DNA of 64,000 nt from an uncultured Chloroflexia bacterium (GCA_963774265.1 CAVZDU010000006.1:288001-352000); one strand, 5' to 3'. Positions 1-26,871 are shown, counted from the stretch's first letter. The notes: a model not told the origin generated them from the letters alone. Numbers and translations are program-made.

Positions 1-1635
1 CTGACCCGAGAACATGAAGACGACCTCTCGCTCACGGGGCGCTTGAGTTGAAGTGATCACCTGCTTAGGATCGAGAGGGTCCAACGCAGATAGGGCATCC
101 TCGACGCTCTGGCATACCAGCATCCTCCGTCTCTCGAAGGCTCGTCGCCCGGTCTGAAGCGTGAATGCAACATCGGCAAGATTGACATCAGGGTGCTGCC
201 GGAGATGCCCAACCAGATTTTCGGTCGCCTGGGCCAGCGCAGCGTCAGACCTGGCAGAAAGCAGAAGGAGCTGGTGAGCTCTGCTGGACCCAGTGGGCTT
301 AGCACGTGGGGCTTCTTCCAGGATGATGTGAGCATTCGTCCCGCCAAGCCCAAAGGAGCTGACCGCCGCCCGACGGGGTGTGGCGCCCGCGGGCCAGGGG
401 GACAACTGGCTATTCACATAAAACGGGCTATTGACAAAGTCAATCTCCGGGTTGGGGCGCTCAAAGTTCAGGCTAGGCGGGATTTGGCCATGGTCAAGGG
501 CAAGGACCGCCTTAATGACCCCGGCCACGCCGGCACCAGCATCGAGATGTCCGATATTAGTCTTAAGCGAACCGATGGGACAGTAGGCTTTCTTGTCCGT
601 CCATCGCCGATAGGCCTCAGTCAGAGCGGCAATCTCAATCGGATCGCCCAGGGATGTCCCAGTTCCGTGGGCCTCAACGTACCCTATCGATTCGGGGGTG
701 ACGTCGGCAACGGCGAGAGCCTCACTGATGACCCTGGCCTGGCCCTGGATGCTTGGGGCGGTAAATCCGACCTTCTGAGCTCCATCATTGTTAACGGCAG
801 AGCCCTTGATCACGGCATATACGCGGTCACCATCCCGGATGGCCTCAGGCAGGCGCTTGAGTACGACCAGGGCGACGCCGCTGCCGCTGACTGTGCCACG
901 GGCTTTAGCGTCAAAGGCCCGGCACTGACCATCAGGTGAATGAATGCCCCCTTCTTCATACTGATAGCCCGCCTTCAAGGGTACACCGATCCTGCCTCCG
1001 CCGGCCAGGGCCATATCACACTCATTGTTCAGTAGACTCTGACAGGCCATGTGGATGGCAACACCTGATGTCGAGCAAGCGGTGCCCACACTCACACTCG
1101 GTCCCGTCAGGTTTAATTTGAACGAAACCCGGGTGATCGCATACTCCTTTTCACTCGCGAGAAGCACCGCGTAGCGGCCGAGCAACTCAAGCATATCGGG
1201 TCTTGTTGCCAGGTTCCTCCGAAAATAGGTGTTCGGCCCCACGCCTGCGAAAACTCCAATCGGACCCGGGTAGCCTTCCGGATCGTAGCCCGCATCCTCG
1301 AGTGCTTCCCAAGCTGTCTCCAGAAGGACCCGGTGCTGGGGATCCATGATCTCGGCTTCTCGGGAGTTGATGCCAAAAAACGAGGCGTCAAAGGCGTCCG
1401 CGTCCGGCATGACCGCGCCGGCATTGACAAAAGACGGCTTTGCGAGCGTCATTTCGTCAACGCCGGATGCGGCTAATTCCTCTGCAGTGAACGGTCTGAT
1501 CGATCCAAGACCATCTCGCAGGTTGTGCCAGAACTCATCGACATTTCTGGCGTCAGGAAAACGACCAGCCATACCAATGATGGCTACGCCAAAGAGATCC
1601 TTGTCGCTGGCTGGTTCAAAGTCTTTCATTTGCAT
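1..1635 (-). CDS. Type I polyketide synthase, KS domain and start of AT domain (partial, runs off window edge)
   Basis: Manual minus-strand translation from ATG 1635/1629 gives MQMKDFEPASDKDLFGVAIIGMAGRFPDARNVDEFWHNLRDG, then the KS active-site GPSVSVGTACSTSGVAIHMA, VEAHGTGTSLGDPIE and SLKTNIGHLDAGAGVAG. AT-start motif REVVFMFSGQ lies at the edge. Absent from the ORF track because no stop lies in the window. Confidence 0.95.
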   Translation of the reverse strand, partial: MQMKDFEPASDKDLFGVAIIGMAGRFPDARNVDEFWHNLRDGLGSIRPFTAEELAASGVDEMTLAKPSFVNAGAVMPDADAFDASFFGINSREAEIMDPQHRVLLETAWEALEDAGYDPEGYPGPIGVFAGVGPNTYFRRNLATRPDMLELLGRYAVLLASEKEYAITRVSFKLNLTGPSVSVGTACSTSGVAIHMACQSLLNNECDMALAGGGRIGVPLKAGYQYEEGGIHSPDGQCRAFDAKARGTVSGSGVALVVLKRLPEAIRDGDRVYAVIKGSAVNNDGAQKVGFTAPSIQGQARVISEALAVADVTPESIGYVEAHGTGTSLGDPIEIAALTEAYRRWTDKKAYCPIGSLKTNIGHLDAGAGVAGVIKAVLALDHGQIPPSLNFERPNPEIDFVNSPFYVNSQLSPWPAGATPRRAAVSSFGLGGTNAHIILEEAPRAKPTGSSRAHQLLLLSARSDAALAQATENLVGHLRQHPDVNLADVAFTLQTGRRAFERRRMLVCQSVEDALSALDPLDPKQVITSTQAPREREVVFMFSGQ

Positions 1636-1772
1636 TCTCTATTTACGTTGTATCTGCATTGTCGCCACCGCAACATCGTCTCTCGACGCGCCTCTCCCCG
1701 ATCAACGCCTTTCTGTAAATTCACTACGATCAAAAGAATGCTCTCCTCTCCTGCCGCAAACCCTTGCGCTGC

Positions 1773-3707
1773 TTAGGGCGCCGGGGCCGTGGCTTGCGCC
1801 TGGAGGATGAGCGGCAGGAGGATACGATGCGGCTCGACCGTCAGCACAAAGGATGCGCTGGCCTCCAAATCTCCATCGCTCACAGTGATGGTGACTACTG
1901 CAGTGCCCACGATTCCCGGCTTGGGAGTGATAACCAGGGTGCGAGCCTTCCCAGTGCCGCCAAAAGTGACGCCGTTCAGCGGATCGACCAACGCCGGATT
2001 CGATGTGGTGAAGGTCAGGCTCAAGCTGGCGGCTGGCGTGTCGCTATCGTCGACGGTAAAGGGCACCGGTCCCACTGCAACGCCGGCCAGGGTGACCTGG
2101 TCAGGGATTGCGGAGATGGTTGGCCCGGCGTCGTTGGCCCCCGTGACGGTGATGATCACCTGAGCGCTATCCGTCAGGCCAACGGCGTCGGCAACCGTAT
2201 AGGTGAAGATATCCTCGGCCTGTTCGCCCGCGCCGAGAGAGTCGAACTCGCCGGCCGGGTCATAGTCGAAGGTGCCGTCGCCATTGTAAGTGAGTGTGCC
2301 GATCAGCGTGCTGTCGTCGTAGTTGATTAGGTTGATGGGGCCGCCGCCAGGGTCGCTGTCGTTGTTCAGCACATTCCCGGTCGTGAAAGCGGTTTCCTCG
2401 TCGGTGGTGTAGGTCGTGCCGCTGTCGTTGGCCGCAGCTGGGGGTGTCGTATCGACGGTCCAGGTGTAGGCAGCGGGGCTGGGGTCTGGGTTGCCGGCGC
2501 CATCGACCGCCCGCACCCTGAAGGTGCGGTTGCCATCGGTCAGGGCCGGGGTGGTGTAGGGGCTGGCGCAGGTGAACCAGCCACTGTTATCCAGTTGGCA
2601 CTCGAAGCCGGCCAGGCCGCTGCCGCCGGGATCGCTACCGGTGAAAGCAAAAGTGGGCGTGTTGTCCCGGTCCGGGTTGGGTGGGATGGCGGTGAGCGTG
2701 GTGTCGGGTGGGGTGGTGTCCGGGGGTGAGGGGAGGGTCATTTCGAATACCCTGCCATCGTTCTCCTCCGGATTCACGTCATTGTCGACGCCCCTGTCGC
2801 TGATGTAGATGTGCGTTACAGCAGGGTTCTGACTGCTGGGGCCAATGGTCAGGTCTGATGGGAGGATCGGATTTGCCGCCGAGATGTCGATCATCCAGAC
2901 CAAATTGCCACTCGTAGTCACCACCGCCACCATGTTGCTGAGTTGCTGGCCGCAGAGATACAGAAGGCCATTGGCGGGGTTGAAGGCGATACCCTCGAGT
3001 GCAGTAACCGCGAAGCCTGCCGTGTCGAAGCTTGTTACTTGATCATCTCCTTCAGGTGCGATGCCGTCAAACACACCGTTGGCGCCTGGCGTGACTTTGT
3101 AGACTTCGGCATTTGTATAGTCAGCGATGAAAAGCATGTCCAGGTCGGCCGAGTATGCAACGCCCAACGGTTTGAGACTGCCAAATGCTGCCGTGCCGAA
3201 AGACGTGATGGCGTCATCCAGCGTGCCATAGACCCCGTCAGCACCTGGGGCCATCTCAAAAACGCTGTCGGCATCGTCATCCACAAAGAAGAGATGCCCG
3301 TTATCGGGATTGAAGCTGACCCCCTCAGGCTCAGCTGAGAATGGTATCGTGCTTGAGGTGCGGATCACGTTGCCAGAAAGGCCGATTTCCCACAGATTGA
3401 CATCCGCATACAACAGCGGCATCTCTTCGATTTCAGAGTCGGAGATCAGCAGTCTGTTCGATGAGCTGAGGTATGCTATGCCTGTCGGGTCAGGACTGGG
3501 CGGGGAGAACTGCGAGGTATTGATGGTTCGCACCAGCGAAGCCACGTACGTGTCGGCTTCAGGAGCCGTAGGCTGGGCAGCCGGTTCCTCTTGTGCAAAG
3601 GCGGCTGAACTCATCGCAAATGAGAGGATCAAGACCAGCCCTACAAATGCCGCCAGCCGACCTGACGATGGAAATCTCACTGGATGGTGCGCATTCTTGT
3701 CCACCAT
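1773..3707 (-). CDS. Secreted/surface protein: signal peptide, beta-propeller-like repeat region, Ig-like and VCBS/cadherin-like domains, C-terminal RILLPLIL motif (copy 2)
   Basis: 644-aa ORF with hydrophobic signal ending AFA-Q, repeated propeller-like motifs (EPEGVSF, GIAFNP), DTTPPDT..YTWTVDTTPP, VLNNDSDP and ITVTGAND. Near-identical to 3910..5865. Confidence 0.85.
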   Translation of the reverse strand: MVDKNAHHPVRFPSSGRLAAFVGLVLILSFAMSSAAFAQEEPAAQPTAPEADTYVASLVRTINTSQFSPPSPDPTGIAYLSSSNRLLISDSEIEEMPLLYADVNLWEIGLSGNVIRTSSTIPFSAEPEGVSFNPDNGHLFFVDDDADSVFEMAPGADGVYGTLDDAITSFGTAAFGSLKPLGVAYSADLDMLFIADYTNAEVYKVTPGANGVFDGIAPEGDDQVTSFDTAGFAVTALEGIAFNPANGLLYLCGQQLSNMVAVVTTSGNLVWMIDISAANPILPSDLTIGPSSQNPAVTHIYISDRGVDNDVNPEENDGRVFEMTLPSPPDTTPPDTTLTAIPPNPDRDNTPTFAFTGSDPGGSGLAGFECQLDNSGWFTCASPYTTPALTDGNRTFRVRAVDGAGNPDPSPAAYTWTVDTTPPAAANDSGTTYTTDEETAFTTGNVLNNDSDPGGGPINLINYDDSTLIGTLTYNGDGTFDYDPAGEFDSLGAGEQAEDIFTYTVADAVGLTDSAQVIITVTGANDAGPTISAIPDQVTLAGVAVGPVPFTVDDSDTPAASLSLTFTTSNPALVDPLNGVTFGGTGKARTLVITPKPGIVGTAVVTITVSDGDLEASASFVLTVEPHRILLPLILQAQATAPAP

Positions 3708-3827
3708 TCAAAGCAACCCCTTTCAGGTTTGTGAATATCAAGAGGCGTGATAGTTACTTCACACAATTCGCAGTGGGCCCGGAAAATAAGCGAGAAGTGC
3801 TCACTGAGATAAAAGAATGCTCCCCTC

Positions 3828-3887
3828 TCCTGCTGCACGGCACCGGCTGCGTCGACTGTAGATCGCAGCCGGTGCCGTGCAGCAGGA
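3828..3887. repeat. Perfect 24-bp inverted repeat (stem-loop) between the two duplicated genes
   Basis: TCCTGCTGCACGGCACCGGCTGCG (3828-3851), 12-nt loop, CGCAGCCGGTGCCGTGCAGCAGGA (3864-3887). Confidence 0.95.
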
Positions 3888-3909
3888 CCGCCGCAAGCCC
3901 TTGCGCTGC

Positions 3910-5865
3910 TTAGGGCGCCGGGGCTGCGGCTTGCGCCTGGAGGATGAGCGGCAGGAGGATACGATGCGGCTCGACCGTCAGCACAAAGGATGCGCTGGCC
4001 TCCAAATCCCCATCGCTCACAGTGATGGTGACTACTGCAGTGCCCACGATTCCCGGCTTGGGAGTGATAACCAGGGTGCGAGCCTTCCCAGTGCCGCCAA
4101 AAGTGACACCGTTCAGCGGATCGACCAACGCCGGATTCGATGTGGTGAAGGTCAGGCTCAAGCTGGCGGCTGGCGTGTCGCTATCGTCGACGGTAAAGGG
4201 CACCGGTCCCACTGCGACGCCGGCCAGGGTGACCTGGTCAGGGATTGCGGAGATGGTTGGCCCGGCGTCGTTGGCCCCCGTGACGGTGATGATCACCTGA
4301 GCGCTATCCGTCAGGCCAACGGCGTCGGCAACCGTATAGGTGAAGATATCCTCGGCCTGTTCGCCCGCGCCGAGAGAGTCGAACTCGCCGGCCGGGTCAT
4401 AGTCGAAGGTGCCGTCGCCATTATAAGTGAGTGTGCCGATCAGCGTGCTGTCGTCGTAGTTGATTAGGTTGATGGGGCCGCCGCCAGGGTCGCTGTCGTT
4501 GTTCAGCACATTCCCGGTCGTGAACGCGGTTTTCTCGTCGGTGGTGTAGGTTGTGCCGCTGTCGTTGGCCGCAGCTGGGGGTGTCGTATCGACGGTCCAG
4601 GTGTAGGCAGCGGGGCTGGGGTCTGGGTTGCCGGCGCCATCGACCGCCCGCGCCCTGAAGGTGCGGTTGCCGTCGGTCAGGGCCGGGGTGGTGTAAGGGC
4701 TGGCGCAGGTGAACCAGCCACTGTTATCCAGTTGGCACTCGAAGCCGGCCACGCCGCTGCCGCCGGGATCGCTACCGGTGAAAGCAAAAGTGGGCGTGTT
4801 GTCCCGGTCCGGGTTGGGTGGGATGGCGGTGAGCGTGGTGTCGGGTGGAGTGGTGTCCGAGGATGAGGGGAGGGTCATTTCGAATACCCTGCCGTCGTTC
4901 TCCTCCGGATTCACGTCATTGTCGACGCCCCTATCGCTGATGTAGATGTGCGTTACAGCGGGGTTCTGACTGCTGGGGCCAATGGTCAGGTCTGATGGAT
5001 TGATCGGATTTGCCGCCGAGATGTCGATCATCCAGGCCAAATTGCCACTCGTAGTCACCACCGCCACCATGTTGCTGGGTTGTTGGCCGCAGAGATACAG
5101 AAGGCCATTGGCGGGGTTGAAGGCGATGCCCTCAATTGCAGCGACTCCGAAACCTGCCGTGTCAAAACTTGTTACTTGATCATCTCCTTCAGGTGCGACG
5201 CCGTCAAACACACCGTTGGCGCCTGGCGTGACTTTGTAGACTTCGGCGTTTGTATAGTCAGCGATGAAAAGCATGTCCAGGTCGGCCGAGTATGCAACGC
5301 CCAACGGTTTGAGACTGCCAAATGCTGCCGTGCCGAAAGACGTGATGGCGTCATCCAGCGTGCCATAGACCCCGTCAGCACCTGGGGCCATCTCAAAGAC
5401 CGTAACTTGATCGTCATCCACAAAGAAGAGATGCCCGTTATCGGGATTGTAGCTGACCCCCTCTGGTTCGTAATATGCATAATACGGGAAAACGACCGTG
5501 CTTGAAGTGCGGAGCACGTTGCCAGAAAGGCCGATTTCCCACAGATTGACATCCGCATACAACAGCGGCATCTCTTCGATTTCAGAGTCGGAGATCAGCA
5601 GTCTGTTCGATGAGCTGAGGTATGCTATGCCTGTCGGGTCAGGACTGGGCGGGGAGAACTGCGAGGTATTGATGGTTCGCACCAGCGAAGCCACGTACGT
5701 GTCGGCTTCAGGGGCCGTGGGCTGGGCAGCCGGATCGTCCTGTGCAAAGGCGGCTGAACTCATCACTAACGAGAGGATCAAGATCAGCCCTACAAATACT
5801 GCCAACCGACCTGACGATGGAAATCTCACTGGATGACTCTCATACGTTTTCATCATTAGAAGCAA
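3910..5865 (-). CDS. Secreted/surface protein, paralog of 1773..3707 (copy 1)
   Basis: 651-aa ORF with the same architecture and near-identical sequence. Confidence 0.85.
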   Translation of the reverse strand: MLLMMKTYESHPVRFPSSGRLAVFVGLILILSLVMSSAAFAQDDPAAQPTAPEADTYVASLVRTINTSQFSPPSPDPTGIAYLSSSNRLLISDSEIEEMPLLYADVNLWEIGLSGNVLRTSSTVVFPYYAYYEPEGVSYNPDNGHLFFVDDDQVTVFEMAPGADGVYGTLDDAITSFGTAAFGSLKPLGVAYSADLDMLFIADYTNAEVYKVTPGANGVFDGVAPEGDDQVTSFDTAGFGVAAIEGIAFNPANGLLYLCGQQPSNMVAVVTTSGNLAWMIDISAANPINPSDLTIGPSSQNPAVTHIYISDRGVDNDVNPEENDGRVFEMTLPSSSDTTPPDTTLTAIPPNPDRDNTPTFAFTGSDPGGSGVAGFECQLDNSGWFTCASPYTTPALTDGNRTFRARAVDGAGNPDPSPAAYTWTVDTTPPAAANDSGTTYTTDEKTAFTTGNVLNNDSDPGGGPINLINYDDSTLIGTLTYNGDGTFDYDPAGEFDSLGAGEQAEDIFTYTVADAVGLTDSAQVIITVTGANDAGPTISAIPDQVTLAGVAVGPVPFTVDDSDTPAASLSLTFTTSNPALVDPLNGVTFGGTGKARTLVITPKPGIVGTAVVTITVSDGDLEASASFVLTVEPHRILLPLILQAQAAAPAP

Positions 5866-6024
5866 CCCCTTTCAAATTCATGGATTTCTGGGCCTTTGTG
5901 GCCGCTTGCCGAGCGTATCCGTTTCCCCTATCAGGATGACAGGGATCAATTGAAGGCGATACACAAAAGATCCGTCTCGTCGGCTGATTATACGTTGCTC
6001 GTCGATATTCTGCGTACCTGCCTT

Positions 6025-9000
6025 TCATCTCGGTTGTCGGCGCCTCATCATGGCTTCTCGGCGCGCCATTCCTCGATCAACACCTTGCTGTGACGTGGTT
6101 TGATCGCCACCGCCCCGATCCTGGCTCAGATACCGGGCCAAAGCACGGATGGTAGGGAATCTGAACATGTCGGTAATATTGAGTTCCCTATCAGTTACTT
6201 CGGACAGCCGGCGGTGGGCCTGGATGATAAGCAAGGAATGTCCACCTAGATCAAAGAAACTGTCGTCGACGCCCACCCTTTCCACTTGCAGCAGCTCCTG
6301 CCAAATACCGGCAATGGCTCTCTCCAATCCATCTTTTGGCGCCGAATAAGCCTCCTCTGGTTGGCCTTCCCATCTCGGGGCCGGTAGACTCTGTCTGCTC
6401 ACTTTGCCATTGGGCGTCAGTGGTAGGGCCTCCAACCGCACGAAGGCGGCAGGCACCATATATTCCGGCAGCCTCTCTTTGAGATAATCACGCAACTCAT
6501 TGATGCGAAGCGGCGACTCAGGTCTTGGCACGACATAGGCCACCAATCGTTTGTCGCCAGGAACATCCTCGCGCGCCAGGGTAACCGCTTCACGGACCGC
6601 TGGGTGCTGGCTCAAGACCGCCTCAATTTCTCCTAGTTCGATTCGGAAACCCCGCACCTTTACCTGGAAATCGAGCCGGCCCAGGAACTCGATGTTGCCA
6701 TCCGATCGGTAACGGACACGATCCCCGGTTCTGAAGAGGCGGGCCTCCGGATCCTTGCTGAACGGGTCAGGCACGAACTTCTCGGCTGTCAGCTCGGGAC
6801 GGTTCAGATACCCCCGCGCGACCTGGACACCCCCAATGTATAACTCCCCTGCTACTCCGATGGGCGACGGCAGCCCGTTTCGATCAAGGATATACAACTG
6901 GGTATTGGCCACCGGTCGGCCAATGGGCACTACCCTACTCGGATCGCCCTCAGGCCGGCATTGCCAATAGCTGACATCCACGGCTGCTTCTGTCGGACCG
7001 TAAAGATTGTGCAGTTCTGCGTCCAGCCGCTCAAAGAACCGCTGCTGAAGGTCGTAGGGCAGAGCCTCACCGCTGCAGATGATGTGCTTGAGGGATCGAC
7101 ACGCTTCGACATCCTTGTCCTCAAGAAACAACTGAAGCATGGAGGGCACAAAATGGATCGTGGTGATCTTCTGGTCGATGATCGTGCTAACAAGATAGGC
7201 ACTGTCCTTGTGCCCCCCCGGCCGGGCCACGACCAAACGCGCTCCTATCAACAGCGGCCAGAAGAACTCCCAGACCGATACATCAAAACTGAAGGGGGTC
7301 TTCTGGAGAACCCGATCTGCCTCGGTCAATCGGTAAGCATCCTGCATCCAGAGTAAACGGTTGCAGATCCCACGGTGGGTGTTCATCACCCCTTTGGGCC
7401 TCCCTGTTGATCCCGAGGTATAGATCACGTAGGCCAGATTCTCAGCCGTTGCCCTACTGGCCGGGTTATCTGCACTCTCCTGAGCGACCGTCGCCCAATC
7501 GAAATCAAGACAAATTACCTGCGCACCATGCTCTGGCAGGCTTGCCGCCCACTTCTTCTGGGTGAGCAGCACTTGCACCTGAGCATCTTGGAGCATGAAG
7601 GCCACCCGGTCGGCAGGATACTCCGGGTCCAGCGGCACGTACGCCCCTCCTGCTTTGAGGATGCCGTAGAGTGCAATGACCATTTCCACGGTGCGCTCCA
7701 TGTGCACCCCCACCAGCACCTCCGGCCCCACCCCGTGCCGCTGCAGGTAATGCGCCAACTGGTTCGCTCGGCGGTTCAGTTCTCCATAAGTCAGTTGCCC
7801 GCCTTCAAAAACCACTGCCACAGCCTCCGGTGCCCGCTTCACCTGGGCCTCAAACAGGTCGTGAAGGCATATGCCCGGCGGATAGTCAGCCCGGGTGTGA
7901 TTCCACTCCACCAACAATTGATGTCGCTCGGCTGCGGTCAAGATGGGTAGATCTGACATCGGCCTGTCGAGGTTGTCGGCCATACCCTCCAGCAGCGTTT
8001 TCAGATGTGCAAGCATTCGTTCGATCGTCGCATCGTCAAATCGCCGTCTGTCAAAGAGCATCCGGAGTAGTAGTTCTGGCTCACCGTATGCGTGCAGCAC
8101 GAGAGCAAAAGCGGGGTCTTCAATGACGGAAAACTCTCTGTTGAGCCAACGTCCCCCTCGTTCTCGCAGCCTGGTATTCAGCCGGGCATGATCGAACACA
8201 ACGATGGTTTCGAACAACGGCGTCCCTCGCGGTACGTCACTCCACCCCATCACATGACTGATTGGCGTCTGCTCGTGATCCCTGACCGCGACGTGTTGCT
8301 CTCTAAGCTCTTCCAGCCATGGAACCAGATTCTTACCAGAAGAGATGCGCACTCGCACCGGCAGAGTGTTCAAGAAGAGCCCCACGATCGAACCGGCTCC
8401 CTTGATCGTCGATTGACGGCATGCTCTCACAGCCCCAAAGACCACATCCTCCGCATCGGCATAACGGCTCAATAACAGAGCCCAGGCTCCCTGAACGAGC
8501 GCGTTGAGAGTAAGATCATGTTGTCGTACAACAGTCTCCAAACGTGAAGTTGTGGACTCCGCGAGTCGAATTTCCCGTTCTCCGCGCTTCTCTCGACCGT
8601 CATTTGGGCTTCCAGTGCGGGAAATCGTATCCAGCGCGATGGGTGCTGTAAAGCCCTTCAACAACTGCCGCCAGTACGGTTCCGATCCTGATGCACCTTT
8701 CTGTCGCAGCCAATCGATATGATCGCGATAGGGCCGCGGGCATTCTAACTCGAGATCACGACCCTCACAATACGCATCGTAGAAGGCGAACACTTCCCTT
8801 ACCAGGATGTGACGGGCCCATCCATCGGCGATGATGTGGTGGTAGGTGCAAACGAGTTCATAGTCTGCGTCGCCAATTCGGAAAAGGGCCAGGCGCATAA
8901 GAGGTGCTTGGGTGAGATCAAATCCTCTCTTCCGATCCAGCTTCAGGAATTGCTCAAATCGACTTAGTTGGCTTGCCGATGTCAGATCTCGCCAATCCTG

Positions 9001-9339: not shown

Positions 9340-9351
9340 ATTCGGATAGAC

Positions 9352-10218: not shown

Positions 10219-10293
10219 GATTACTTCCTTTTTTCGACGATTCAACATCTGCCGTCGAGGTTTTCAGCCAGAAAAAGACGCAGCGTGACTTTG

Positions 10294-14185: not shown

Positions 14186-14211
14186 ATTAGCCTCACAACC
14201 TCGGAGACCAT

Positions 14212-16664: not shown

Positions 16665-16729
16665 GCCTTAGTCTCCTTCTTGCCCCAGGTTCAACTACGA
16701 ATTGCACGACGATGCATCTTCGATATCCA

Positions 16730-19017: not shown

Positions 19018-19033
19018 CGGTCCCTCTATGTTG

Positions 19034-20551: not shown

Positions 20552-22185
20552 GAGCTCAGTCTCGCGGATGCTTTATGCGACGGCTGGAGCAGACCATTCC
20601 GGCTCTCGGCGCCATGATGGAGGCTTGCGGCTAATCCGGCCATGAGGCCGACGATCGCTGTGCTCTCTTCCTGTACGAAATGCTGGTGAAAAAAGGACCA
20701 TTGCATCAGGCCCACAGAGCCAGCCAATAGCGCCAAGGCGATCGCTCTGAGCTGCCCCTCGGATAGAGTTCTGTAGAGCCGCCCGCTGTTGATCACAAGT
20801 GCCACGCAGAACCAAATGAAACAAGCCAAGCCCGGAAGACCCATCTTGACGGCAATAAACAGGTAGCTATTGTGGAGAAACCGCGTGAAGCGTGAGATCA
20901 CCCCTGCCACCAGACTGCCTTTTGTCATCCACCCGATGGCCTCTCCTTGAAGAGTGGTGATCGCACGATAGGAATTGCCCAGACCAACGCCCATCAACGG
21001 GTGCTCAGACACAGACTGCAACCCCAGCGAAGTCTCGAAAGCACGCCACTCCAAGGAATTACTCGCCAATGCCTCCTTGGGTGCAAGGATGGAAAGGCCT
21101 CGCTGAATAAATGAGGTGGCCAATGCCGAATTGCCTATGCTTCGTCTTAGCTCGGCGCCCAATAGACCGAATAACAAACCGAAGAGCAGCAAAAGCAGCG
21201 GGATGCCTATCGCGAAGTAGCGGATCAGACGAGCTTTGTAACTCAAGAAGATGGCGATCAGGACCAGCCCCACCGCGATGGCAGCCGCAAGCCACAGAGC
21301 CCGGGTATAAGTGAGCAGGAGGCCAACGTTGAGATACACTAGCTGTAGGCCAAGGATGGCGCGCATATGCCGGCCGTGTGGAGCAAGTACCATCAGGCAG
21401 AAAGCCAAGAGCATCACGAAATAGACCAGCACGACCCCTGGCGGCATGATCCGCACCATCCCGAAGCTCCCTGCGCCACCGGTCTGCTCCACCGCGTACA
21501 ACTGCCAATTGCTGGCCGACATTGCGGCCAACAAAGGATGGTTTACCCCAAGGAACTGCTGGAGGATAATGACTCCGGCTATAAGGTCCGCAATGATGAA
21601 CATGCCGATGAGCACGGTTGTTAGTTGGCGTCTGGTTGTGACGGCCCAACCAGTCACAAAAAAAACGCAGTAGTAAGCCAGGGCGCGGAGTTCGTTGAAT
21701 GCCCAGTTCAATTCCACATGCTGATAGGTCAGTGCGTATAAAGTCGAGAAGACGGCAAGACCCAGGAAAACAAGCAGCGGGGTACTAACAGGCAACCATG
21801 GTACTGACAGAGTCTTGCGGATCAGCCCTCGCAGGATCAAGAGTCCTAGCATCCCGATAAAAACCAGATCGCGGAACTCCAACCCACCACCGATCGAAAG
21901 ACGTAAGTCAATGATGTCGGTTGGAACAAGGCTGGACGTCAGGAAGATAATCGCCAGCAGCCCAAACTCAGGCCGGCGCCAGAGCAGCAAAAAAAGGGGT
22001 ATCCCCAAGCTGAGAAAGGCCAGGCCATAAGCAGTCAGTGAGGGGGCGAAATATGCTCCGGCTGCCAAGACCGCCAAGACAAGGACGCAAATCAAGGTCC
22101 TCACGGTGTTGGGTGCGCGGTAAAACGTGGCCGGAAACGGTGTCCCGGCCCCGCTTGATTTGCTTGAGAATTCGGCCTGTTGCAC
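20548..22185 (-). CDS. wzy: Wzy polymerase / O-antigen ligase-family protein
   Basis: Polytopic membrane protein with TYTRALW, HPLMGVGLG and HNSYL..KMGLPG (Wzy_C-like) motifs. Confidence 0.8.
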   Translation of the reverse strand: MQQAEFSSKSSGAGTPFPATFYRAPNTVRTLICVLVLAVLAAGAYFAPSLTAYGLAFLSLGIPLFLLLWRRPEFGLLAIIFLTSSLVPTDIIDLRLSIGGGLEFRDLVFIGMLGLLILRGLIRKTLSVPWLPVSTPLLVFLGLAVFSTLYALTYQHVELNWAFNELRALAYYCVFFVTGWAVTTRRQLTTVLIGMFIIADLIAGVIILQQFLGVNHPLLAAMSASNWQLYAVEQTGGAGSFGMVRIMPPGVVLVYFVMLLAFCLMVLAPHGRHMRAILGLQLVYLNVGLLLTYTRALWLAAAIAVGLVLIAIFLSYKARLIRYFAIGIPLLLLLFGLLFGLLGAELRRSIGNSALATSFIQRGLSILAPKEALASNSLEWRAFETSLGLQSVSEHPLMGVGLGNSYRAITTLQGEAIGWMTKGSLVAGVISRFTRFLHNSYLFIAVKMGLPGLACFIWFCVALVINSGRLYRTLSEGQLRAIALALLAGSVGLMQWSFFHQHFVQEESTAIVGLMAGLAASLHHGAESRNGLLQPSHKASARLSS

Positions 22186-22242
22186 GTCAGTTGCCCTACT
22201 TCACGCTGTCTCTTACTGATCTTCCATCAAGGATGTCATAGG

Positions 22243-23412
22243 CTACCGATTTTGACGGAGTCTCCAGGATGGCATGGAAGGGAGCTCCGCTTGCCCTTCG
22301 GGCGTCAACGCTTCACGCTTTCGAGCCGGCGTAGCAACGCCCGCTGTTTTGAAACCGGAAAGGTACTCCAGCAAAAAAGCCAGCGCCACACCCAGGCCCA
22401 AACTGCCGACCAAAGCGAGCACCGCCAGCATGGGCCAGTTAGCATCAGGCTCAGATGGCGGGTACGCAGGCTTGATGACCTGGATGAAGTTGGCAGCCTG
22501 AATCGCAGTGACCTTTACCTCCGCCTCGCCATATTTGCTGAGGAGATGTTGATAAGTGGCGCGTGCCTGCTCCGCCTTCTGTACCAGGACGTTGTACTGA
22601 GGGGCCAGAGCCGAGAATTGATCCAGCTCTTTCTGGCGCTGGGCAATCAGTTTGTCAACCTCGCCTACAGGATCGATGATCGCAGTGGTGATAGCCGAAG
22701 TAGTGGTGATAGCCGAAGTAGTAGTGATAGCCGAAGTAGTAGTGATAGCCGAAGTAGTAGTGTCTTGGGTCGCCGCTTCCAACAAGCGCTCATCGCGTCT
22801 CAACTGCAGTTGTTGGAGGAGCACTTGCTGCGTGGATAACTGACTTTCGAGTGAGTAGATGCCGTTCTGGTTCCGGAAATCACCCAGGGCCATCTCAGCA
22901 GTGTGGAACTCTTCCTCGGCAACCCGCAGCTGTCCGGCCAAGAGCGCCATCTCCGCCTTAGTCGCCTGAGCACGCAACTCGCCGTAGTAGGCGATAGCGA
23001 CGGGGATGTGAGCGTTGGCAATCTCCGCTGCCAGACTGGGCGTCCGTGCTTTGACAGTAACATCGACGAAATCCGCGTCGGTGACGGACTCGCCCTTCAG
23101 ATCATAGTCAGCATCTTTGCCCTTCAAACCGAGCTGGCTAACGGTACGTGCGAATACCTCCTCACTCTGCAACAACTCAACGAAGTTGTTGATGGCAACG
23201 GTGATCTCGTCGCGCAGGCCGATGGAGCGGTACTCGTCGTATAACGCCACTTCCTCGCGCTGTGGCGTTGATATCTGCAGCCTGAGGGTAGCGGTGTAAA
23301 CTGGTTCAGCGGCGCGCGTGCCCAACCACAGTCCTAGCTCAGTCACCACCACCACGGCCACGATCAGCCAAAACCAGCGCCGCATGGCTCGCAGTATATC
23401 GATCAGTTCCAT
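22243..23412 (-). CDS. Wzz/GumC-like polysaccharide copolymerase (chain-length determinant)
   Basis: MELIDILRAMRRWFWLI N-terminal TM, PVYTAT, coiled coil, C-terminal VIKPAYPP..TM..FLLEYL. No tyrosine kinase domain. Confidence 0.85.
   Translation of the reverse strand: MELIDILRAMRRWFWLIVAVVVVTELGLWLGTRAAEPVYTATLRLQISTPQREEVALYDEYRSIGLRDEITVAINNFVELLQSEEVFARTVSQLGLKGKDADYDLKGESVTDADFVDVTVKARTPSLAAEIANAHIPVAIAYYGELRAQATKAEMALLAGQLRVAEEEFHTAEMALGDFRNQNGIYSLESQLSTQQVLLQQLQLRRDERLLEAATQDTTTSAITTTSAITTTSAITTTSAITTAIIDPVGEVDKLIAQRQKELDQFSALAPQYNVLVQKAEQARATYQHLLSKYGEAEVKVTAIQAANFIQVIKPAYPPSEPDANWPMLAVLALVGSLGLGVALAFLLEYLSGFKTAGVATPARKREALTPEGQAELPSMPSWRLRQNR
22684..22762. repeat. In-frame 18-bp tandem repeat (~4.4 copies; encodes TTTSAI)
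   Basis: AGT(G/A)GTGATAGCCGAAGT repeated inside the Wzz coiled coil. Confidence 0.95.
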
Positions 23413-23449
23413 ATTCTGTCTCTCCTTCGGCAGACCACTTCGGTTCAAA

Positions 23450-24549
23450 CTAGCCGAGAAGGCTCATTCGTCCATGGATGAAGCTGATTTGCTCATCGTT
23501 CAATTCCGGATACATAGGCAGCGAAAGGATTTCCTCGACAATACGCTCGGTTACGGGCAGATCGCCGGCCTGGTAGCCGAGGTACGCCATCGCTTTCTGC
23601 AGGTGCACGGGCACGGGGTAGTGGATGCCGCTTCCAATCCCATGTTCTTTCAGATACGCCTGAATCCGGTCGCGGTCAGACACCCGGATCACATACAGAT
23701 GATACACATGCCGGTTGCCGGAGCGCTCCACCGGGGTGGTCACCGGGAGGCCGTTCAGTAGCTCATTGTAGCGCGCCGCGTGCGAACGCCGCGCCTCGTT
23801 CCACGCCTCCAGGTGCGGCAGCTTGGCGCGCAGCACCACCGCCTGCAGCTCGTCGAGGCGCGCGTTCCAGCCGATCAGGTCGTGGTAGTAACGGCGCTCG
23901 GAACCGTGGTCCCGGATCATGCGGACCTTGTGCGCCAGATCGTCGTCGTTCGTCGTGATGAAACCGCCCTCACCGTAAGCTCCCAGGTTCTTGGAGAAGT
24001 AGAAGCTGAAGGCCGCGGCATCGCCCAGGCCGCCCGCGCGCCGGCCCTTGTACTCGGCGCCGTGCGCCTGACAGGCGTCCTCGATCACTTTCAGGCCGTG
24101 ACGGCCCGCCAATTCCATCAGGGGATCCATGTCAACGGTCTGACCGTAGAGGTGCACCGGCATGATGGCCTTCGTATGAGGGGTGATTCTCGCCTCGATC
24201 TGCTGGACGTCCATCAGATAGGTGTCGGGATCGATATCCACGAAGACCGGGCGCGCGCCGGCCAGGATGATGGCCTCGGCCGTGGCGATGAAAGTGTGCG
24301 AGACGGTGATCACCTCGTCACCTGCCCCAATGCCCATCGCGCGAAGAATGACTGTGTAGCGCTGTGGTGCCGTCACTCACGCCGATTCCGTGCTTCACGC
24401 CGCAGAACTGCGCGAACTCTTTCTCGAAAGCCTGGACGTTGTCGACCCAGAAAGAGGTGCATGCCCTCCAGCGCCTGCTCCATGCCGGCAATGATCTCAT
24501 CTTTGAGTGGTTGGTATTGGGCGCCCAGGTCGACCAATGGGATGTTCAT
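23450..24549 (-). CDS. DegT/DnrJ/EryC1/StrS sugar aminotransferase (frameshifted near 24350-24460, probably sequencing error)
   Basis: Start MNIPLVDLGAQY at 24549. PVHLYGQ, IEDACQAHG, FSFYFSKNLGAYGEGG and NARLDELQA are spread across frames. Confidence 0.88.
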
Positions 24550-25049
24550 CCTGCCTCTCCTTTGGGTTCGTCAATCCAGCGAATGATGCGTGCGGGATTT
24601 CCCGCGACAATCGTGCGCGCTGGCACGTCGTGCGTGACAACAGCGCCGGCGCCGACAATCGCCCCTTCACCAATGGTCACGCCGCACAGGATCGTGGCAT
24701 TGCTGCCGATCGACGCGCCATGCTTGACCAGGGTCGGCACCACCTGCCAATCTGCCTCGGTTTGCAGCACACCGCTGTCAGTCGCTGCGCGTGGGTATCG
24801 ATCGTTGATGAACATCACGCCGTGGCCGATAAATACCTCGTCCTCGATGGTGACCCCTTCGCAGATGAAGGTGTGGCTCGATATTTTGACTCGCCGACCG
24901 ATCCTGGCTCCCTTCTGGATCTCCACGAACGTGCCGATCTTGCTCTCGTCGCCCACTTCGCAGCCATAGAGGTTGACGAAGGCATACACCTTAACGTCGC
25001 GCCCAAGCTTGACGTCGGACGCTATGCGGATGGTTGGGTTCTCGCTCAC
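24546..25049 (-). CDS. Hexapeptide-repeat N-acetyltransferase (WbpD/WxcM-like)
   Basis: KISSHTFICEGVTIEDEVFIGHGVMFINDRYPRA and IGSNATIL..VGAGAVVT..VAGNPAR motifs. Confidence 0.9.
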   Translation of the reverse strand: MSENPTIRIASDVKLGRDVKVYAFVNLYGCEVGDESKIGTFVEIQKGARIGRRVKISSHTFICEGVTIEDEVFIGHGVMFINDRYPRAATDSGVLQTEADWQVVPTLVKHGASIGSNATILCGVTIGEGAIVGAGAVVTHDVPARTIVAGNPARIIRWIDEPKGEAG

Positions 25050-26060
25050 AGGTCGATGTTCTCCCGGCCGCCGTTATTCAACAGCGACTTTTGGGCCGCT
25101 TCGAGAATGCGCACCACCTTCGTGCCCATCCAGGCATCGCTGCAGGCCGGACGGCCGGTCTCGATATAATCTACGAATGCCTGGCATTCGAGTCGAAGCG
25201 GCTCTTGCCAGGGCACCGGCACGGAGGTCTCGGCCCCATGGCGATACGACATGTGGAATTGCTCCGGCGTATCCGAGTAGGGCGGGACTTCCACCCCGTT
25301 GTCGAAGAGCCGCACCTTATCGTTCGCGATGTCATCATAGACCAGCATCTTGCGACTGCCGACGACCGTGATGCTGCGCTGCTTCACGGGGTCGAGCCAC
25401 GACACCCGTACGTTGGCGAGGATATGGGAAGGGAAATAGAAGGTTAGATAGGCCACCTCGTGAAGAACCTTGCGGCGTTGAATGTACGCCTGCCCGCTCG
25501 CACTGACCTGGAAGGGATCGGTCCCCAGGATGTGCAAGCAGGATCGACACATCGTGCGGGGCCAGGTCCCACATGACGTTGACGTCGGGTTGCAGCAGGC
25601 CCAGGTTGGCGCGGGTGGCGTTGATGTTGTAGATTTGGCCGAGTTCTCCATCGCGGATCAGGTCACGCACGACATTGACGGCCGGGTTATACTGGAAGGT
25701 ATGACCGACCATTGCAGCCAGGTGCAGACGGTCGGCCGTCTCGGCGATGTCCATCGCCTCGGACATGGACGCCGCCAGCGGTTTCTCGACCATCACGTGC
25801 TTGCCTGCGCGCAGAGCGGCCATAGCGAGTGGGTGATGAGTGGATACGGGAGTGGCTATGACAACTGCATCCACACCCGACGCCAGCAACTCCCGGTAGT
25901 CCCGCGTTGCCTGGGTCCCGGCGTAGAGGCTTGTCACGTGATCTAGCCGCGACTGGTCCAGGTCGCAGACCCAGGAGAGATGCGTGCTCGGCAATTCATA
26001 GAAGTTGCGGGCCAACTTGGGGCCCCAATAGCCGAGGCCCACCACACCCACTGTTATCAT
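25046..26060 (-). CDS. Gfo/Idh/MocA oxidoreductase (frameshift near 25540)
   Basis: VGVVGLGYWG, IATPVSTHH, HVMVEKP and WDLAPHDVSI. C-terminal half (SWLDPVKQR, EPLRLEC) continues in ORF 25046..25651. Confidence 0.88.
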
Positions 26061-26115
26061 GTTCCGAATCTCCTTTCCAAGGGGCTGCGCCGGGTCCCGC
26101 AGCCAGGATCCCCTG

Positions 26116-26871
26116 TCACCCGGCTCCGTCGCCCACGGCATCCTTGGCGACCGCCAGGGGAGTCAGTAGCAGAATCTGCAGGTCCAACCCGAATGACATG
26201 TGTTCGATATAGTATAAATCTATCCGCACCATTTCATCGAATGGGACCCGGTTTCTTGCTTTGACCTGCCAGAGACCGGTGATTCCCGGGATGGCTGACA
26301 GCCGGCCTTTGTGCCAGTCCTCGTAGAGCTCGACCTCGTACGAGAGAGCAGGCCGGGGCCCGACCAGGCTCATGTCTCCCTTGAGAACGTTGATCAACTG
26401 CGGTAGTTCGTCCAAGCTCGTCTTACGCAGGATGCGCCCTACTTCAGTGATGCGGCGGTCGCCCTGCATCTTCAAGCTGTCATAGGATGCGCTCGGTACG
26501 GTCTTGTTCCGGATGACTTCAGCCATATACTCGCGATGGCGATCGGGGTCAGCGTCGGAGTGCATCGAACGAAACTTGTACATCTTGAACAGCCGCGGGG
26601 TTCCCGTTCGGGCATCATAACCAACCCGCTCCTGTGCGAACAGCGCCGACCCTGGTGAATAGGCTCTGATAAGCACCGCGATCAACGCGAGTAACGGTGC
26701 GAGCACCACCAGTGATGTAAGGGCTACGATCATGTCGATACCCCGCTTCACGACCGGGTAAAGCCGGCGGCCGCGGGTCAGGGTTCCAGATGGTGCATAA
26801 CTTTGGGAAGTCGAGATAAAGCCCTTCGGATCAACACCCATCGACAATTGGATCGCCTCCTTCATCGTCAC
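26116..26871 (-). CDS. Second small phosphoglycosyl transferase (Bac_transf)
   Basis: KRGID, MYKFRSM and [27 protein letters not shown] motifs. Confidence 0.92.

Follow-up and report, generated by a model that had tools for sequence, protein, structure and literature searches.

A predicted serine-loading NRPS and a single-module PKS with a putative cysteine thioesterase lie within a co-oriented Wzx/Wzy polysaccharide locus of an uncultured Chloroflexia bacterium

Introduction

Two-protein lines that join one amino acid to one malonyl unit have been described for MucD (C-A-PCP, with a starter C domain) and MucE (KS-ACP-TE), in which an N-acyl-aminoacyl unit is combined with malonyl and the lactam is closed by the thioesterase (TE) (PMC10161427). 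Type I polyketide synthase (PKS) genes are also found within clusters for the synthesis and export of surface polysaccharides, as reported for WcbR and RkpA (PMC3908369). Carenaemin of Collimonas arenae is described as an antifungal with a peptide core, for which a Wzy-pathway locus is proposed to provide glycosylation and secretion (PMC8313283). Among TEs, AB3403 is the only other solved example with a Cys nucleophile besides the lactam- and lactone-forming enzymes (PMC11298585).

Results

A single array of 20 genes. Gene identities were assigned from an ORF listing with Pfam and NCBIfam profile scans of the window, the whole 64,000-nucleotide stretch analysed (GCA_963774265.1 CAVZDU010000006.1:288001-352000). 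Positions 1 to 26871, together with 2.2 kb further left, form a single array of 20 minus-strand genes, bounded by a phosphoglycosyl transferase (PGT) at 26871 and with the PKS starting at 1635 (Table 1). The original prediction of about 20 co-oriented genes, with a nonribosomal peptide synthetase (NRPS) and a PKS physically inside a Wzx/Wzy locus, is borne out by this count. Its PGT, Wzz, Wzy, Wzx, glycosyltransferases, ATP-grasp, PSD-like protein, second PGT, SDR, BKACE and C-A-PCP NRPS are confirmed by profiles; it omitted the dehydrogenase/acetyltransferase/aminotransferase trio (23450-26141) and an NHL/Ig-like pair, and its deacetylase is a sub-threshold match. Intergenic gaps in the glycan part range from -4 to 65 nt. 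The G+C content is 0.567 for the NRPS, 0.573 for the PKS and 0.522-0.616 for the glycan genes (genome, 0.626), and the low-GC island comprises the whole 48-kb region. Terminator-like sites across the locus (L003) are not above chance (8 found, 9.3 expected). The array plausibly divides into two functional parts, a heteropolysaccharide locus (26871 to 9352) and a complete minimal hybrid assembly line (9339 to -2174).

Table 1. Features of the array, in window positions
Feature	Position	Strand	Evidence
PGT1, initiating phosphoglycosyl transferase, Bac_transf	26116..26871	-	PF02397 201.5 bits; TIGR03025 254 bits, below cut-off
GFO/IDH/MocA oxidoreductase, UDP-GlcNAc 3-dehydrogenase-like, two frames	25046..26141	-	PF01408 + PF22725; NF040723 130 bits, below cut-off
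Hexapeptide-repeat acyltransferase	24546..25049	-	PF00132 84.8 bits
DegT/DnrJ/EryC1 sugar aminotransferase	23450..24546	-	PF01041 368 bits, from profile position 54
Wzz-type chain-length determinant	22243..23448	-	PF02706 33 bits
Wzy-type polymerase / O-antigen ligase family membrane protein	20548..22185	-	PF04932 53 bits
Wzx-type flippase, MOP family	19034..20551	-	PF01943 100 bits, PF13440 98 bits
Three glycosyltransferases	15432..19017	-	Pfam GT1/GT4 families; NF047676 100 bits, below cut-off
 TuaH-like	17701-19017	-	
 Weak GT4	16730-17704	-	
 GT4	15432-16664	-	
ATP-grasp ligase	14212..15393	-	PF15632 32 bits, PF02786 28 bits
Phosphatidylserine-decarboxylase-like (pyruvoyl) protein	13364..14185	-	PF02666 137 bits
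425-aa protein (unk425), possibly divergent CE4 polysaccharide deacetylase	12087..13364	-	PF01522 sub-threshold
PGT2, second phosphoglycosyl transferase	11347..12090	-	PF02397 201.6 bits
Extended SDR, sugar-nucleotide dehydratase/epimerase type	10294..11295	-	PF16363 196 bits, PF01370 186 bits
BKACE, beta-keto acid cleavage enzyme family	9352..10248	-	PF05853 260 bits
NRPS C-A(Ser)-PCP	6025..9339	-	PF00668, PF00501, PF13193, PF00550
Secreted NHL-repeat + Big_9/cadherin-like protein, paralog a	3910..5865	-	Pfam; hydrophobic signal-like N terminus
GC-rich hairpin, ~24 pairs	3828..3887	-	Folding; 23 nt past paralog a stop
Secreted NHL-repeat + Big_9/cadherin-like protein, paralog b	1773..3707	-	Pfam
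PKS, first 545 residues, KS + KS-AT linker	1..1635	-	Pfam on whole protein

The glycan part. One 1-nt insertion splits the GFO/IDH/MocA gene (PF01408 in ORF 25335-26141, PF22725 in ORF 25046-25651), which is a single unbroken frame in G002, a genome of the same genus; the N-terminal ~55 residues of DegT are scattered across three frames, with two 1-nt insertions relative to G002. As rpoB is likewise split in this assembly, these frameshifts are probably assembly errors. The dehydrogenase, acyltransferase and aminotransferase may well be amino-sugar genes. The 425-aa protein has no Pfam match at E<=0.001; it scores E 0.004 and 17.5 bits against PF01522 (cut-off, 23.1) and is 23% identical (E 2e-5) to a PF01522-positive gene in the locus of G091, a genome of another family, and 63% to its G002 homologue. 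The best NCBIfam matches of the SDR are LegB-like and dTDP-glucose dehydratase, both below their cut-offs. The nearest homologues of BKACE in the class (57, 57 and 44%) adjoin PGT, hexapeptide acyltransferase, DegT or SDR genes, without NRPS or PKS; because these closest homologues sit in glycan loci, the glycan part is read as directly abutting the NRPS.

The NRPS. The protein is 1,104 aa long from a GTG at 9339 and 1,080 aa from an ATG at 9267; start-codon context makes the latter the probable start, which widens the gap to BKACE from 12 to 84 nt. An intact HHxxxDG motif (HHIIADG) is present in the C domain, and GGHS is also found. The C domain matches McyB (379 bits), PvdL (287), BacC (266), SrfA-C (240), and the SrfAA starter C (240), against only 86 bits for TycC; by these best-match scores, and with the clade labels that we assume for the matched domains, it is assigned to the DCL/starter type. 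The pocket segment of the A domain (aa 680-800) matches best to Txo1 (159.8 bits), Txo2, FscH and EntF, which we take to be serine activators, in agreement with the predicted serine specificity. Aligned to EntF, in what is presumably GrsA numbering, the pocket residues are D-V-W-H-I-S-L-V-D (D-V-W-H-F-S-L-V-D in EntF). The 5.5-Mb assembly has no other NRPS or type I PKS, and nowhere in it is there an upstream module for the NRPS; an Sfp-size PPTase frame is present elsewhere in the genome.

The PKS. The entire protein is 1,269 aa (C6:285826-289635), and 2,174 nt of its gene lie left of the window. Of the KS-AT PKS proposed at the window edge, the KS is inside; positions 1-1635 stop at the KS-AT linker. 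Recovery of the contig left of position 1 supplied the AT, an ACP and a TE, making a single non-reducing KS-AT-ACP-TE module; no KR, DH, ER or R domain was found by Pfam in the complete protein. Beyond the PKS come convergent plus-strand genes, so the line has no further modules. The proposed absence of a TE holds for the NRPS protein, but the assembly line does end in its own TE, on the PKS. The KS contains the proposed TACSTS motif, and the string ASEKEYAITRVSFKLNLTGP also occurs, its first A having been misread as S.

Residues C187, H323, H363, S635, H731-AFH-734, S967, G1091-x-C1093-x-G1095 and H1234 are invariant in all 12 family members, as is E1120, an acidic residue just after beta-6 in the TE. 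The AT motif, HAFH, is presumably a malonyl signature. The best solved match to the TE is AB3403 (56 bits), whose Cys aligns with C1093, as does the Ser/Ala of 7crn/7dxo; the predicted TE nucleophile is thus a cysteine, a rare type. Among 23 KS homologues, from a set of NRPS-selected and hence biased loci, 13 begin 46-314 nt after an NRPS PCP. About 30 metagenomic KS-AT-ACP-TE homologues match at 48-72% over the ACP-TE part, save one at 39%. The TE family also occurs in two genomes (G174, G291) as A-T-TE and C-A-T-TE members near transporters, aminotransferases and Mur-ligase-like genes, and so is not glycan-specific.

Genes between the NRPS and the PKS. The two assembly-line genes are separated by tandem NHL + Big_9 paralogs (644/651 aa, 94% identical), which are read as an insertion interrupting the assembly line. 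The hairpin after paralog a is followed within a few bases by a U-rich stretch and matches itself on the opposite strand; its 145-nt fold has a dG of -81.1 kcal/mol (z -7.1), a stability reached by none of 200 shuffled sequences. It is a candidate terminator or repeat element; no such hairpin follows paralog b.

Occurrence in other genomes. In the samples searched, the sole orthologous pair is in G091, where it occupies the corresponding end of a second PGT-Wzz-Wzx-Wzy locus. That array, on one strand, holds PGT, Wzz-GGDEF, Wzx, Wzy, GT4, CE4, hexapeptide acyltransferase and more, and later UGDH, GT4, FemAB-like, PPTase, A-PCP-ST and KS-AT-ACP-TE, the NRPS and PKS genes being adjacent. Its A-PCP shares the pocket residues and is 65% identical (KS, 77%; AT, 68%; ACP-TE, 55%), and its TE motif is GICSG. 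The G091 NRPS has a sulfotransferase and no C domain, so the products of the two loci differ. G002 (89% complete) has a syntenic glycan locus (PGT1, 68%; DegT, 87%; Wzy, 46%; unk425, 63%); an NRPS (best E 1e-30), a PKS TE and BKACE are all missing from this genome, and its glycan contig ends ~200 nt after unk425, short of the junction. The pair occurs in none of 36 further genomes from its own order, 1 of 22 of G091's order, 1 other among 400 of the class sample and 0 of 400 of the phylum sample. The synteny of wzx-wzy with NRPS-PKS recurs in G091; in no other genome of the samples was the pair found.

Discussion

By analogy with the domain logic of MucD/MucE, we infer that the best chemical reading is a TE-released (N-acyl)-seryl-malonyl C5 unit. 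The PCP would be loaded with L-Ser, the Ser would be N-acylated by the DCL/starter-type C domain, and one KS extension with malonyl-ACP would yield a 4-(acyl)amino-5-hydroxy-3-oxopentanoyl thioester; as far as this ACP-bound intermediate the chemistry is likely. Release by the Cys-TE would by default, following the same analogy, be lactam closure to an N-acyl-5-hydroxymethyl-tetramic acid; hydrolysis or transfer onto another nucleophile are the alternatives. No gene is assignable to an acyl donor, KR, glycan-acyl transferase or exporter.

Because the pair of Ser-type A-PCP and KS-AT-ACP-TE(Cys) recurs at the same end of the G091 locus, the product is read, at about even chances, as being produced alongside the polysaccharide, whether as substituent, cap or co-secreted matrix molecule. 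This link is judged on two loci, the ~30 metagenomic homologues being outside that count. The NRPS lies on the same strand 12-84 nt after BKACE, and low G+C is common to NRPS, PKS and glycan genes; against the link, the pair is sporadic, G002 has a glycan locus without NRPS or PKS, and a strong hairpin and two unrelated genes separate NRPS from PKS. As the pairing recurs in a distant relative, the polymer and this small product may go together.

The sporadic distribution and the G002 locus would also suit a separate small-molecule cluster that happens to lie next to the glycan genes and whose product is a free N-acyl tetramic acid (or beta-keto acid/lactone) of the reutericyclin/mutanocyclin kind, as antibiotic or signal. 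The line is self-contained, with its own TE, other members of the TE family sit in non-glycan contexts, and the domain logic is that of MucD/MucE, whose product is a free tetramate (PMC10161427). The 48-kb low-GC island would fit as well, polysaccharide islands then tentatively being common landing sites for horizontally acquired genes. This explanation is the less probable one: the sole orthologous pair found occupies the same place in a Wzx/Wzy locus that differs in other respects, only a short gap separates the line from the last glycan gene, convergent genes follow the PKS, no MucA-C-like acetylation genes occur among the 20 genes, and no exporter, regulator or resistance gene stands beside the line. 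Of the TE and exporter named in the original prediction as marks of a conventional released antibiotic, the former is present, on the PKS, and the latter is not beside the line.

That prediction offered two readings, of which a peptide-polyketide substituent of the polymer may hold. The other is a lipid anchor, in which N-acyl-Ser, once extended and reduced, becomes a ceramide-like 2-acylamino-1,3-diol on which PGT2 or a glycosyltransferase builds. A fatty acyl group could be added by the DCL/starter-type C domain, the locus has two PGTs, and capsule loci with PKS genes (wcbR/rkpA) are known (PMC3908369). The diol head requires ketoreduction, however, and is not supported: the complete PKS lacks KR and R domains and adds a single C2 unit before the TE, and the only nearby SDR scores as a sugar-nucleotide enzyme. 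The G091 orthologue, without a C domain, would have no N-acyl chain, and the usual carrier in Wzx/Wzy-type loci such as this one is undecaprenyl phosphate. A lipid anchor is accordingly improbable, and a decaying relic, its line split by the NHL gene pair and its function lost, is at least as improbable. Decay would account for the two unrelated genes and strong hairpin between NRPS and PKS genes that are adjacent in G091, for frameshifted neighbours and for the MbtH gene not being found; yet the two large ORFs (3.3 and 3.8 kb) are unbroken and retain all their catalytic residues, the frameshifts are probably assembly errors, rpoB being split too, and split NRPS and PKS genes can work in trans.

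Compared with described systems, the locus shares with WcbR and RkpA a type I PKS gene inside a surface-polysaccharide cluster. Their loci are presumably capsule loci of the ABC-transporter type, in which the PKS stands alone without an NRPS partner, whereas this locus is Wzx/Wzy-type and its non-reducing KS-AT-ACP-TE would receive its substrate from a Ser NRPS; neither ABC/Kps genes nor an alpha-oxoamine synthase occur among the 20 genes. For carenaemin, two separate chromosomal loci are linked genetically; here both gene sets share one array. AB3403, an Acinetobacter baumannii C-A-PCP-TE (PDB 4zxh), likewise has a Cys nucleophile (GWCFG; GSCLG here) and an acidic residue right after beta-6, Glu (E1120) here; identity is low, and AB3403 is an NRPS terminal module whose product is not known. 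The beta-lactam- and beta-lactone-forming TEs SulM and ObiF also use a Cys acyl-enzyme nucleophile, but the Gln-Cys-Asn motif and relocated Asp of SulM (PMC11298585) are absent here, where the motif is Ser-Cys-Leu. As the TE-bound unit would end in a malonate-derived 3-keto acyl group, it would offer no beta-hydroxyl or beta-amine for a four-membered ring. Relative to MucD/MucE, the amino acid is Ser instead of Leu, the PKS carries a cis-AT where MucE is KS-ACP-TE, the MucA-C acetylation genes and MucF deacylase of the mutanocyclin cluster are absent from the 20 genes, and the context is a Wzx/Wzy locus. In domain logic, the line resembles MucD/MucE and the reutericyclin pair: two proteins, an acyl-accepting C-A-PCP NRPS and then a single non-reducing PKS module with a TE, for one malonyl extension of an N-acyl-aminoacyl thioester.

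A Wzx/Wzy-Type Gene Array Runs into an NRPS and a PKS

The window corresponds to G000:C6:288001-352000. ORF listing together with Pfam and NCBIfam scans resolved 20 genes, all on the minus strand, that span the distance from a first phosphoglycosyl transferase (PGT1) to a PKS (see the table below). An initiating PGT, Wzx, Wzy, Wzz and GTs lie in this one array (Pfam), the composition of a Wzx/Wzy-dependent locus, and intergenic distances in the glycan part are −4 to 65 nt. The gene order of the original prediction was correct by ORF and domain scans; its gene list had left out the dehydrogenase/acyltransferase/aminotransferase trio and the two NHL genes. The latter encode proteins with 94% mutual identity and signal-like N termini. 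Within the glycan part, an ATP-grasp ligase and a PSD-like pyruvoyl decarboxylase adjoin (window 13364-15393); as a speculation, such a pair could place an amino acid onto a sugar acid and then decarboxylate it, for example turning a seryl into an ethanolamine amide.

Genes of the array (window positions unless a contig or locus is named) and of the second locus on contig C9 of G091, a genome of another family
Locus	Feature	Position	Strand	Family or remark
Window	PGT1	26116-26871	-	PF02397
Window	GFO/IDH/MocA dehydrogenase, two frames	25046-26141	-	
Window	Hexapeptide acyltransferase	24546-25049	-	
Window	DegT aminotransferase	23450 to ~24546	-	
Window	Wzz	22243-23448	-	PF02706
Window	Wzy	20548-22185	-	PF04932
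Window	Wzx	19034-20551	-	PF01943/PF13440
Window	Three GTs	15432-19017	-	GT families (Pfam)
Window	ATP-grasp	14212-15393	-	
Window	PSD-like	13364-14185	-	
Window	425-aa protein	12087-13364	-	
Window	PGT2	11347-12090	-	
Window	SDR	10294-11295	-	Scores as sugar-nucleotide enzyme
Window	BKACE	9352-10248	-	PF05853
Window	NRPS, C-A-PCP	6025-9339	-	
Window	NHL + Big_9 proteins, two	3910-5865 and 1773-3707	-	
Window	PKS	Start at 1635; C6:285826-289635	-	
G091:C9	Part 1: PGT, Wzz-GGDEF, Wzx, Wzy, GT4		One strand	
G091:C9	Part 2: PF01522 deacetylase, hexapeptide acyltransferase, GATase-like gene, GT4 fragment		One strand	
G091:C9	Part 3: FG-GAP/DUF11 proteins, then UGDH, GT4		One strand	
G091:C9	Part 4: FemAB/Acetyltransf_6 protein, PPTase		One strand	PPTase overlaps the next gene
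G091:C9	A-PCP-sulfotransferase	L147:9287-12339	One strand	PF13469; A-PCP 65% identical, same pocket residues, no C domain
G091:C9	KS-AT-ACP-TE, directly next		One strand	KS 77%, AT 68%, ACP-TE 55% identical; nucleophile GICSG

Relative to G002, a genome of the same genus, the GFO gene carries one 1-nt insertion and the DegT gene two. As the essential rpoB gene of the source assembly (G000) likewise falls into two overlapping frames (G000:C7:915-4168, L154), these frameshifts are likelier to be uncorrected indel errors than marks of pseudogenes, which suggests residual indel errors in the 10-contig assembly. Unlike GFO, DegT and rpoB, the NRPS and PKS have uninterrupted reading frames. An RpoB search returned matches at 60 to 62% identity that bear no label beyond 'Chloroflexi bacterium'; the class name Anaerolineae derives from the labels of NRPS homologs.

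In a consensus scan for promoters and terminators, matches did not exceed chance (8 terminator-like sites versus 9.3 expected). A terminator between the glycan genes and the NRPS-PKS had been named as evidence against the original prediction; a hairpin was found, but it lies between NRPS and PKS. This GC-rich hairpin of ∼24 pairs (window 3828-3887, minus strand) lies 23 nt past the first NHL gene; its 145-nt fold has a ΔG of −81 kcal/mol (z = −7.1), and a U-rich stretch follows within a few bases. The otherwise similar region behind the second NHL copy lacks precisely this hairpin, and folds after the NRPS and after NHL paralog b are not significant (z = −1.8 and −1.2). The hairpin could act as a terminator or represent a small palindromic element that was inserted. 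As the NRPS and PKS are adjacent in G091, the NHL pair itself seems to have been inserted into a pre-existing NRPS-PKS unit.

The G+C contents of the NRPS (0.567) and PKS (0.573) lie within the range of the glycan genes (0.522-0.616; genome mean 0.626), in a low-GC island at C6:268-316 kb that also extends over a further EPS locus to the left. The right island edge falls near window position 30000, where G+C rises from 0.55-0.61 (1-28000) to 0.64-0.67 (32000-46000); a 7TM-HisKA_3 histidine kinase (28203-29978) is encoded immediately upstream of the locus, in the same orientation. The left EPS-type locus (L001, C6:268001-288000) is on the minus strand and encodes a double GT4, a RimK-type ATP-grasp, a histidine phosphatase, an enolase-like protein, a Wzx-like flippase and a DUF218 protein; three plus-strand genes, including one for a 1,257-aa PA14/NHL protein, separate it from the PKS.

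The NRPS Has a Serine-Type Pocket and a C Domain of Probable DCL/Starter Type

The NRPS scores 302 bits against PF00668, 337 bits against PF00501 and 53 bits against PF00550, and the motifs of the C domain (HHIIADG; HHxxxDG) and carrier (GGHS; GGxS) are intact. Its start is likely the ATG at 9267, which has AGGAG 9 nt upstream, matches a 1,080-aa database call and leaves an 84-nt gap to the BKACE gene. The A-domain pocket segment has its best matches in Txo1/Txo2, FscH and EntF, all of which we take to be serine activators; with position numbering after GrsA, alignment to EntF gives D-V-W-H-I-S-L-V-D here versus D-V-W-H-F-S-L-V-D in EntF. The serine code is DVWHxSLxDK. The pocket is thus of the Ser type, and the serine assignment made in the original prediction stands. 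When searched in isolation against the PDB, the C domain scores 240 to 379 bits with McyB, PvdL, BacC, SrfA-C and the SrfAA starter C domain and 86 bits with TycC; by similarity score, this places it on the DCL/starter side.

The NRPS and PKS are the sole NRPS and the sole type I PKS of the assembly. With no other NRPS present, the assembly offers no donor module, so that the simplest interpretation is an acyl donor. An Sfp-size PPTase frame lies on contig C10; no MbtH gene was found in the G000 assembly. In the protein P0131, an NRPS of A-T-C-A-T layout with an Anaerolineae label, the A-PCP part is 76% identical to ours, but the C domain, by eye, only about one-third; this comparison suggests that the C domain of our NRPS was swapped in. 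Five further homologs (P0133, P0142, P0155, P0176 and P0178), whose A domains share 51 to 65% identity with that of the NRPS, are NRPSs of ∼1,800 aa with a PilZ (c-di-GMP-binding) domain; an NRPS that senses c-di-GMP would be unusual, and in keeping with a matrix or biofilm theme.

The PKS Is Complete, Non-Reducing and Ends in a Cysteine Thioesterase

Only the KS and the KS-AT linker of the PKS fall within the window; the complete protein has 1,269 aa and is followed to the left on the contig by convergent plus-strand genes. A Pfam scan of the whole protein returned KS, KS-AT linker, AT, PP-binding and Thioesterase domains and nothing more. The original prediction had proposed annotating the contig left of position 1 for the remaining domains; this yielded an ACP and a TE, and no KR/DH/ER, further C, R or GT domain or extra module was found in the PKS or its continuation. 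Its statement that a TE is missing holds for the NRPS protein but not for the line, as the PKS carries its own.

The catalytic motifs are TACSTS, HGTGT, GHSIG, HAFH, GGSS and, in the TE, GSCLG; HAFH follows the rule for malonyl-specific ATs. When 12 members of the family, 59 to 78% identical to the G000 PKS, were aligned, the KS Cys-His-His residues (C187, H323, H363), the AT residue S635 with the H731-A-F-H734 motif, the carrier S967 and, in the TE, the G-x-C-x-G motif, E1120 and H1234 proved invariant (12/12). Among the matches listed, ∼30 of 120 homologs have the KS-AT-ACP-TE architecture at 1,245 to 1,300 aa. The closest match of the TE is AB3403, which has a Cys nucleophile of its own. 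The TE Cys also aligns with the position that in 7crn/7dxo holds the catalytic Ser (or the Ala that replaces it), and the acid residue E1120 follows β-6, as does that of AB3403.

Among the solved TEs covered by one source, Cys is restricted to lactam- and lactone-forming enzymes and the uncharacterized AB3403 (PMC11298585). SulM/ObiF-type TEs are described there with a Gln-Cys-Asn motif and a catalytic Asp at position II (PMC11298585). Our TE has the Cys nucleophile in common with SulM and ObiF but differs in its motif, Ser-Cys-Leu; the SulM-type Gln-Cys-Asn with Asp at position II was not found. The KS-AT-ACP-TE(Cys) proteins are an uncharacterized group, with solved structures of this TE type limited, in that source, to SulM, ObiF and AB3403 (PMC11298585). 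Apart from any link to the glycan, interest lies in this family, whose Cys nucleophile every aligned member retains, and in the small size of the line.

The NRPS-PKS Pair Recurs in One Other Genome

A search with the NRPS over 185,579 species representatives gave at least 600 matching stretches, at least 596 of them relatives, the best 80 of which were kept; the best match in this set is 54 to 55% identical, and these are generic Ser modules from other phyla. In the 89 loci compared there was no adjoining BKACE or glycan-gene homolog; PKS matches occurred in 20, with one 30% ATP-grasp match. Across 61 related genomes, the best NRPS match was 49%. A JGI metagenome scan with the PKS returned 24 stretches and one relative (L132, 53%), a multi-module PKS that was rejected as an ortholog.

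We searched for the pair with the ACP-TE part as query, excluding G000 itself. The original prediction had called for a check on conserved wzx-wzy plus NRPS-PKS synteny; G091 is the one case seen, being the hit in the class sample (1/400) and in its own order (1/22), while the pair was absent from our own order (0/36 genomes) and the phylum sample (0/400). Across the order, class, phylum and G091 family/order searches, G091 is the sole other genome with the pair. Its NRPS-PKS region has many frame breaks; as these affect many genes and P0010, a near-identical 1,259-aa protein, is uninterrupted, we read them as assembly errors. The same locus encodes a Wzz-like chain-length determinant with a GGDEF diguanylate cyclase domain as fusion partner (L148:12476-13600).

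In a same-genus DNA search, G002 was syntenic over the glycan part, as far as the gene for the 425-aa protein, at which its contig stops, and partly so over the left EPS locus (G002:C38); its assembly (89% complete) lacks the NRPS, the PKS TE and the BKACE. Glycan genes without the NRPS-PKS, named beforehand as counterevidence, are thus seen as far as that contig end. A glycan link common to the entire Cys-TE family was rejected, as members in G174 and G291 have non-glycan contexts. Both appear in small orphan systems: in L150 (G174:C614), an A-PCP-TE member of this TE family has a class I/II aminotransferase and a PPTase as neighbors, and in L151 (G291:C6) a C-A-PCP-TE and an A-PCP-TE adjoin two Mur-ligase-like genes.

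The BKACE protein matches PF05853 over its full length (260 bits, profile positions 2-274 of 274), and every NCBIfam equivalog score is under its cut-off. Its nearest homologs in a 401-genome class sample (G281, 57%; G257, 57%; G213, 44%) lie beside a PGT, hexapeptide acyltransferase, DegT or SDR (L114, G281:C38; L115, G257:C86; L117, G213:C155), on contigs with no NRPS or PKS, and BKACE is absent from G091, which carries the pair (E ≤ 1e-40). BKACE therefore belongs to the glycan part, which abuts the NRPS. A role as partner of the PKS, which would yield a β-keto acid, was rejected given the glycan contexts of these closest homologs. The subfamily, at 44 to 57% identity, recurs within glycan loci, where one possible role is to provide an unusual acyl-CoA for amino-sugar N-acylation.

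Candidate Products and Their Possible Link to the Glycan

The domain set with its intact catalytic residues, the Ser-type pocket, the HAFH AT, the lack of reducing domains and the Cys-TE, all established at sequence level, outline a short route. Ser-PCP would be N-acylated by the C domain, and one decarboxylative Claisen extension would give 4-(acyl)amino-5-hydroxy-3-oxopentanoyl-ACP; this intermediate would then pass to Cys1093 and be released. Besides lactam formation, the chemistry would equally allow a six-membered lactone via the Ser hydroxyl, hydrolysis or transfer to a glycan nucleophile. The ceramide-like anchor of the original prediction is not supported, as it needs reduction and the complete PKS has no KR or R domain; the nearby SDR scores as a sugar-nucleotide enzyme, leaving a trans-acting reductase as a possible source of the amino-diol. 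The G091 version, which lacks a C domain and would thus add no N-acyl chain, also argues against a lipid anchor.

Whether the NRPS-PKS serves the glycan at all is, in our estimate, close to an even bet. The claim that it is built into the locus gains from the second locus in G091; if the link is not real, we are looking at an ordinary small orphan NRPS-PKS cluster beside a variable polysaccharide island. A specific form of the link strikes us as rather improbable: transfer by the TE of the Ser-malonate unit (4-amino-5-hydroxy-3-oxopentanoyl), N-acylated here and probably O-sulfated in G091, to an amine or hydroxyl group on either the finished polymer or the repeat unit while still undecaprenyl-linked. 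Should the link be real, assembly-line enzymes can feed building blocks to Wzx/Wzy polysaccharides, broadening surface-glycan chemistry in the Chloroflexota, a phylum for which there is hardly any work on envelope and matrix polymers. With two proteins, one amino acid and one malonate, the line is small enough for in vitro reconstitution and so directly testable.

Comparison with Known Systems

WcbR/RkpA systems combine ABC-transporter-type capsule export with a reducing, stand-alone PKS; here, in contrast, ABC/Kps genes were not found in the array or left flank, and the PKS is non-reducing. The presence of PKS genes within capsule loci is described for wcbR/rkpA (PMC3908369). For carenaemin, an antifungal with a peptide core, glycosylation and secretion are proposed to need a Wzy-pathway locus elsewhere in the genome (PMC8313283). 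Our literature search found no class of glycan decoration built by an NRPS-PKS inside a Wzx/Wzy locus, and no description, including in Anaerolineae, of a Ser NRPS with a non-reducing Cys-TE PKS in such loci.

Judged by domain order, MucD/MucE is the closest characterized design to our line, sharing C-A-PCP and KS-(AT)-ACP-TE with one malonyl extension. MucA-C-like domains, which we take to be of the thiolase, HMG-CoA-synthase-like and DUF35 families, occur in none of the 20 genes (Pfam). As described for that system, MucA-C are three proteins responsible for acetylation, and the TE of MucE (KS-ACP-TE), acting after MucD (C-A-PCP, starter C), forms a lactam and so closes an N-acyl tetramate (PMC10161427). 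We regard the system described here as a small hybrid line that follows the Muc/Rtc design, placed in a genomic setting that is new and possibly functional.
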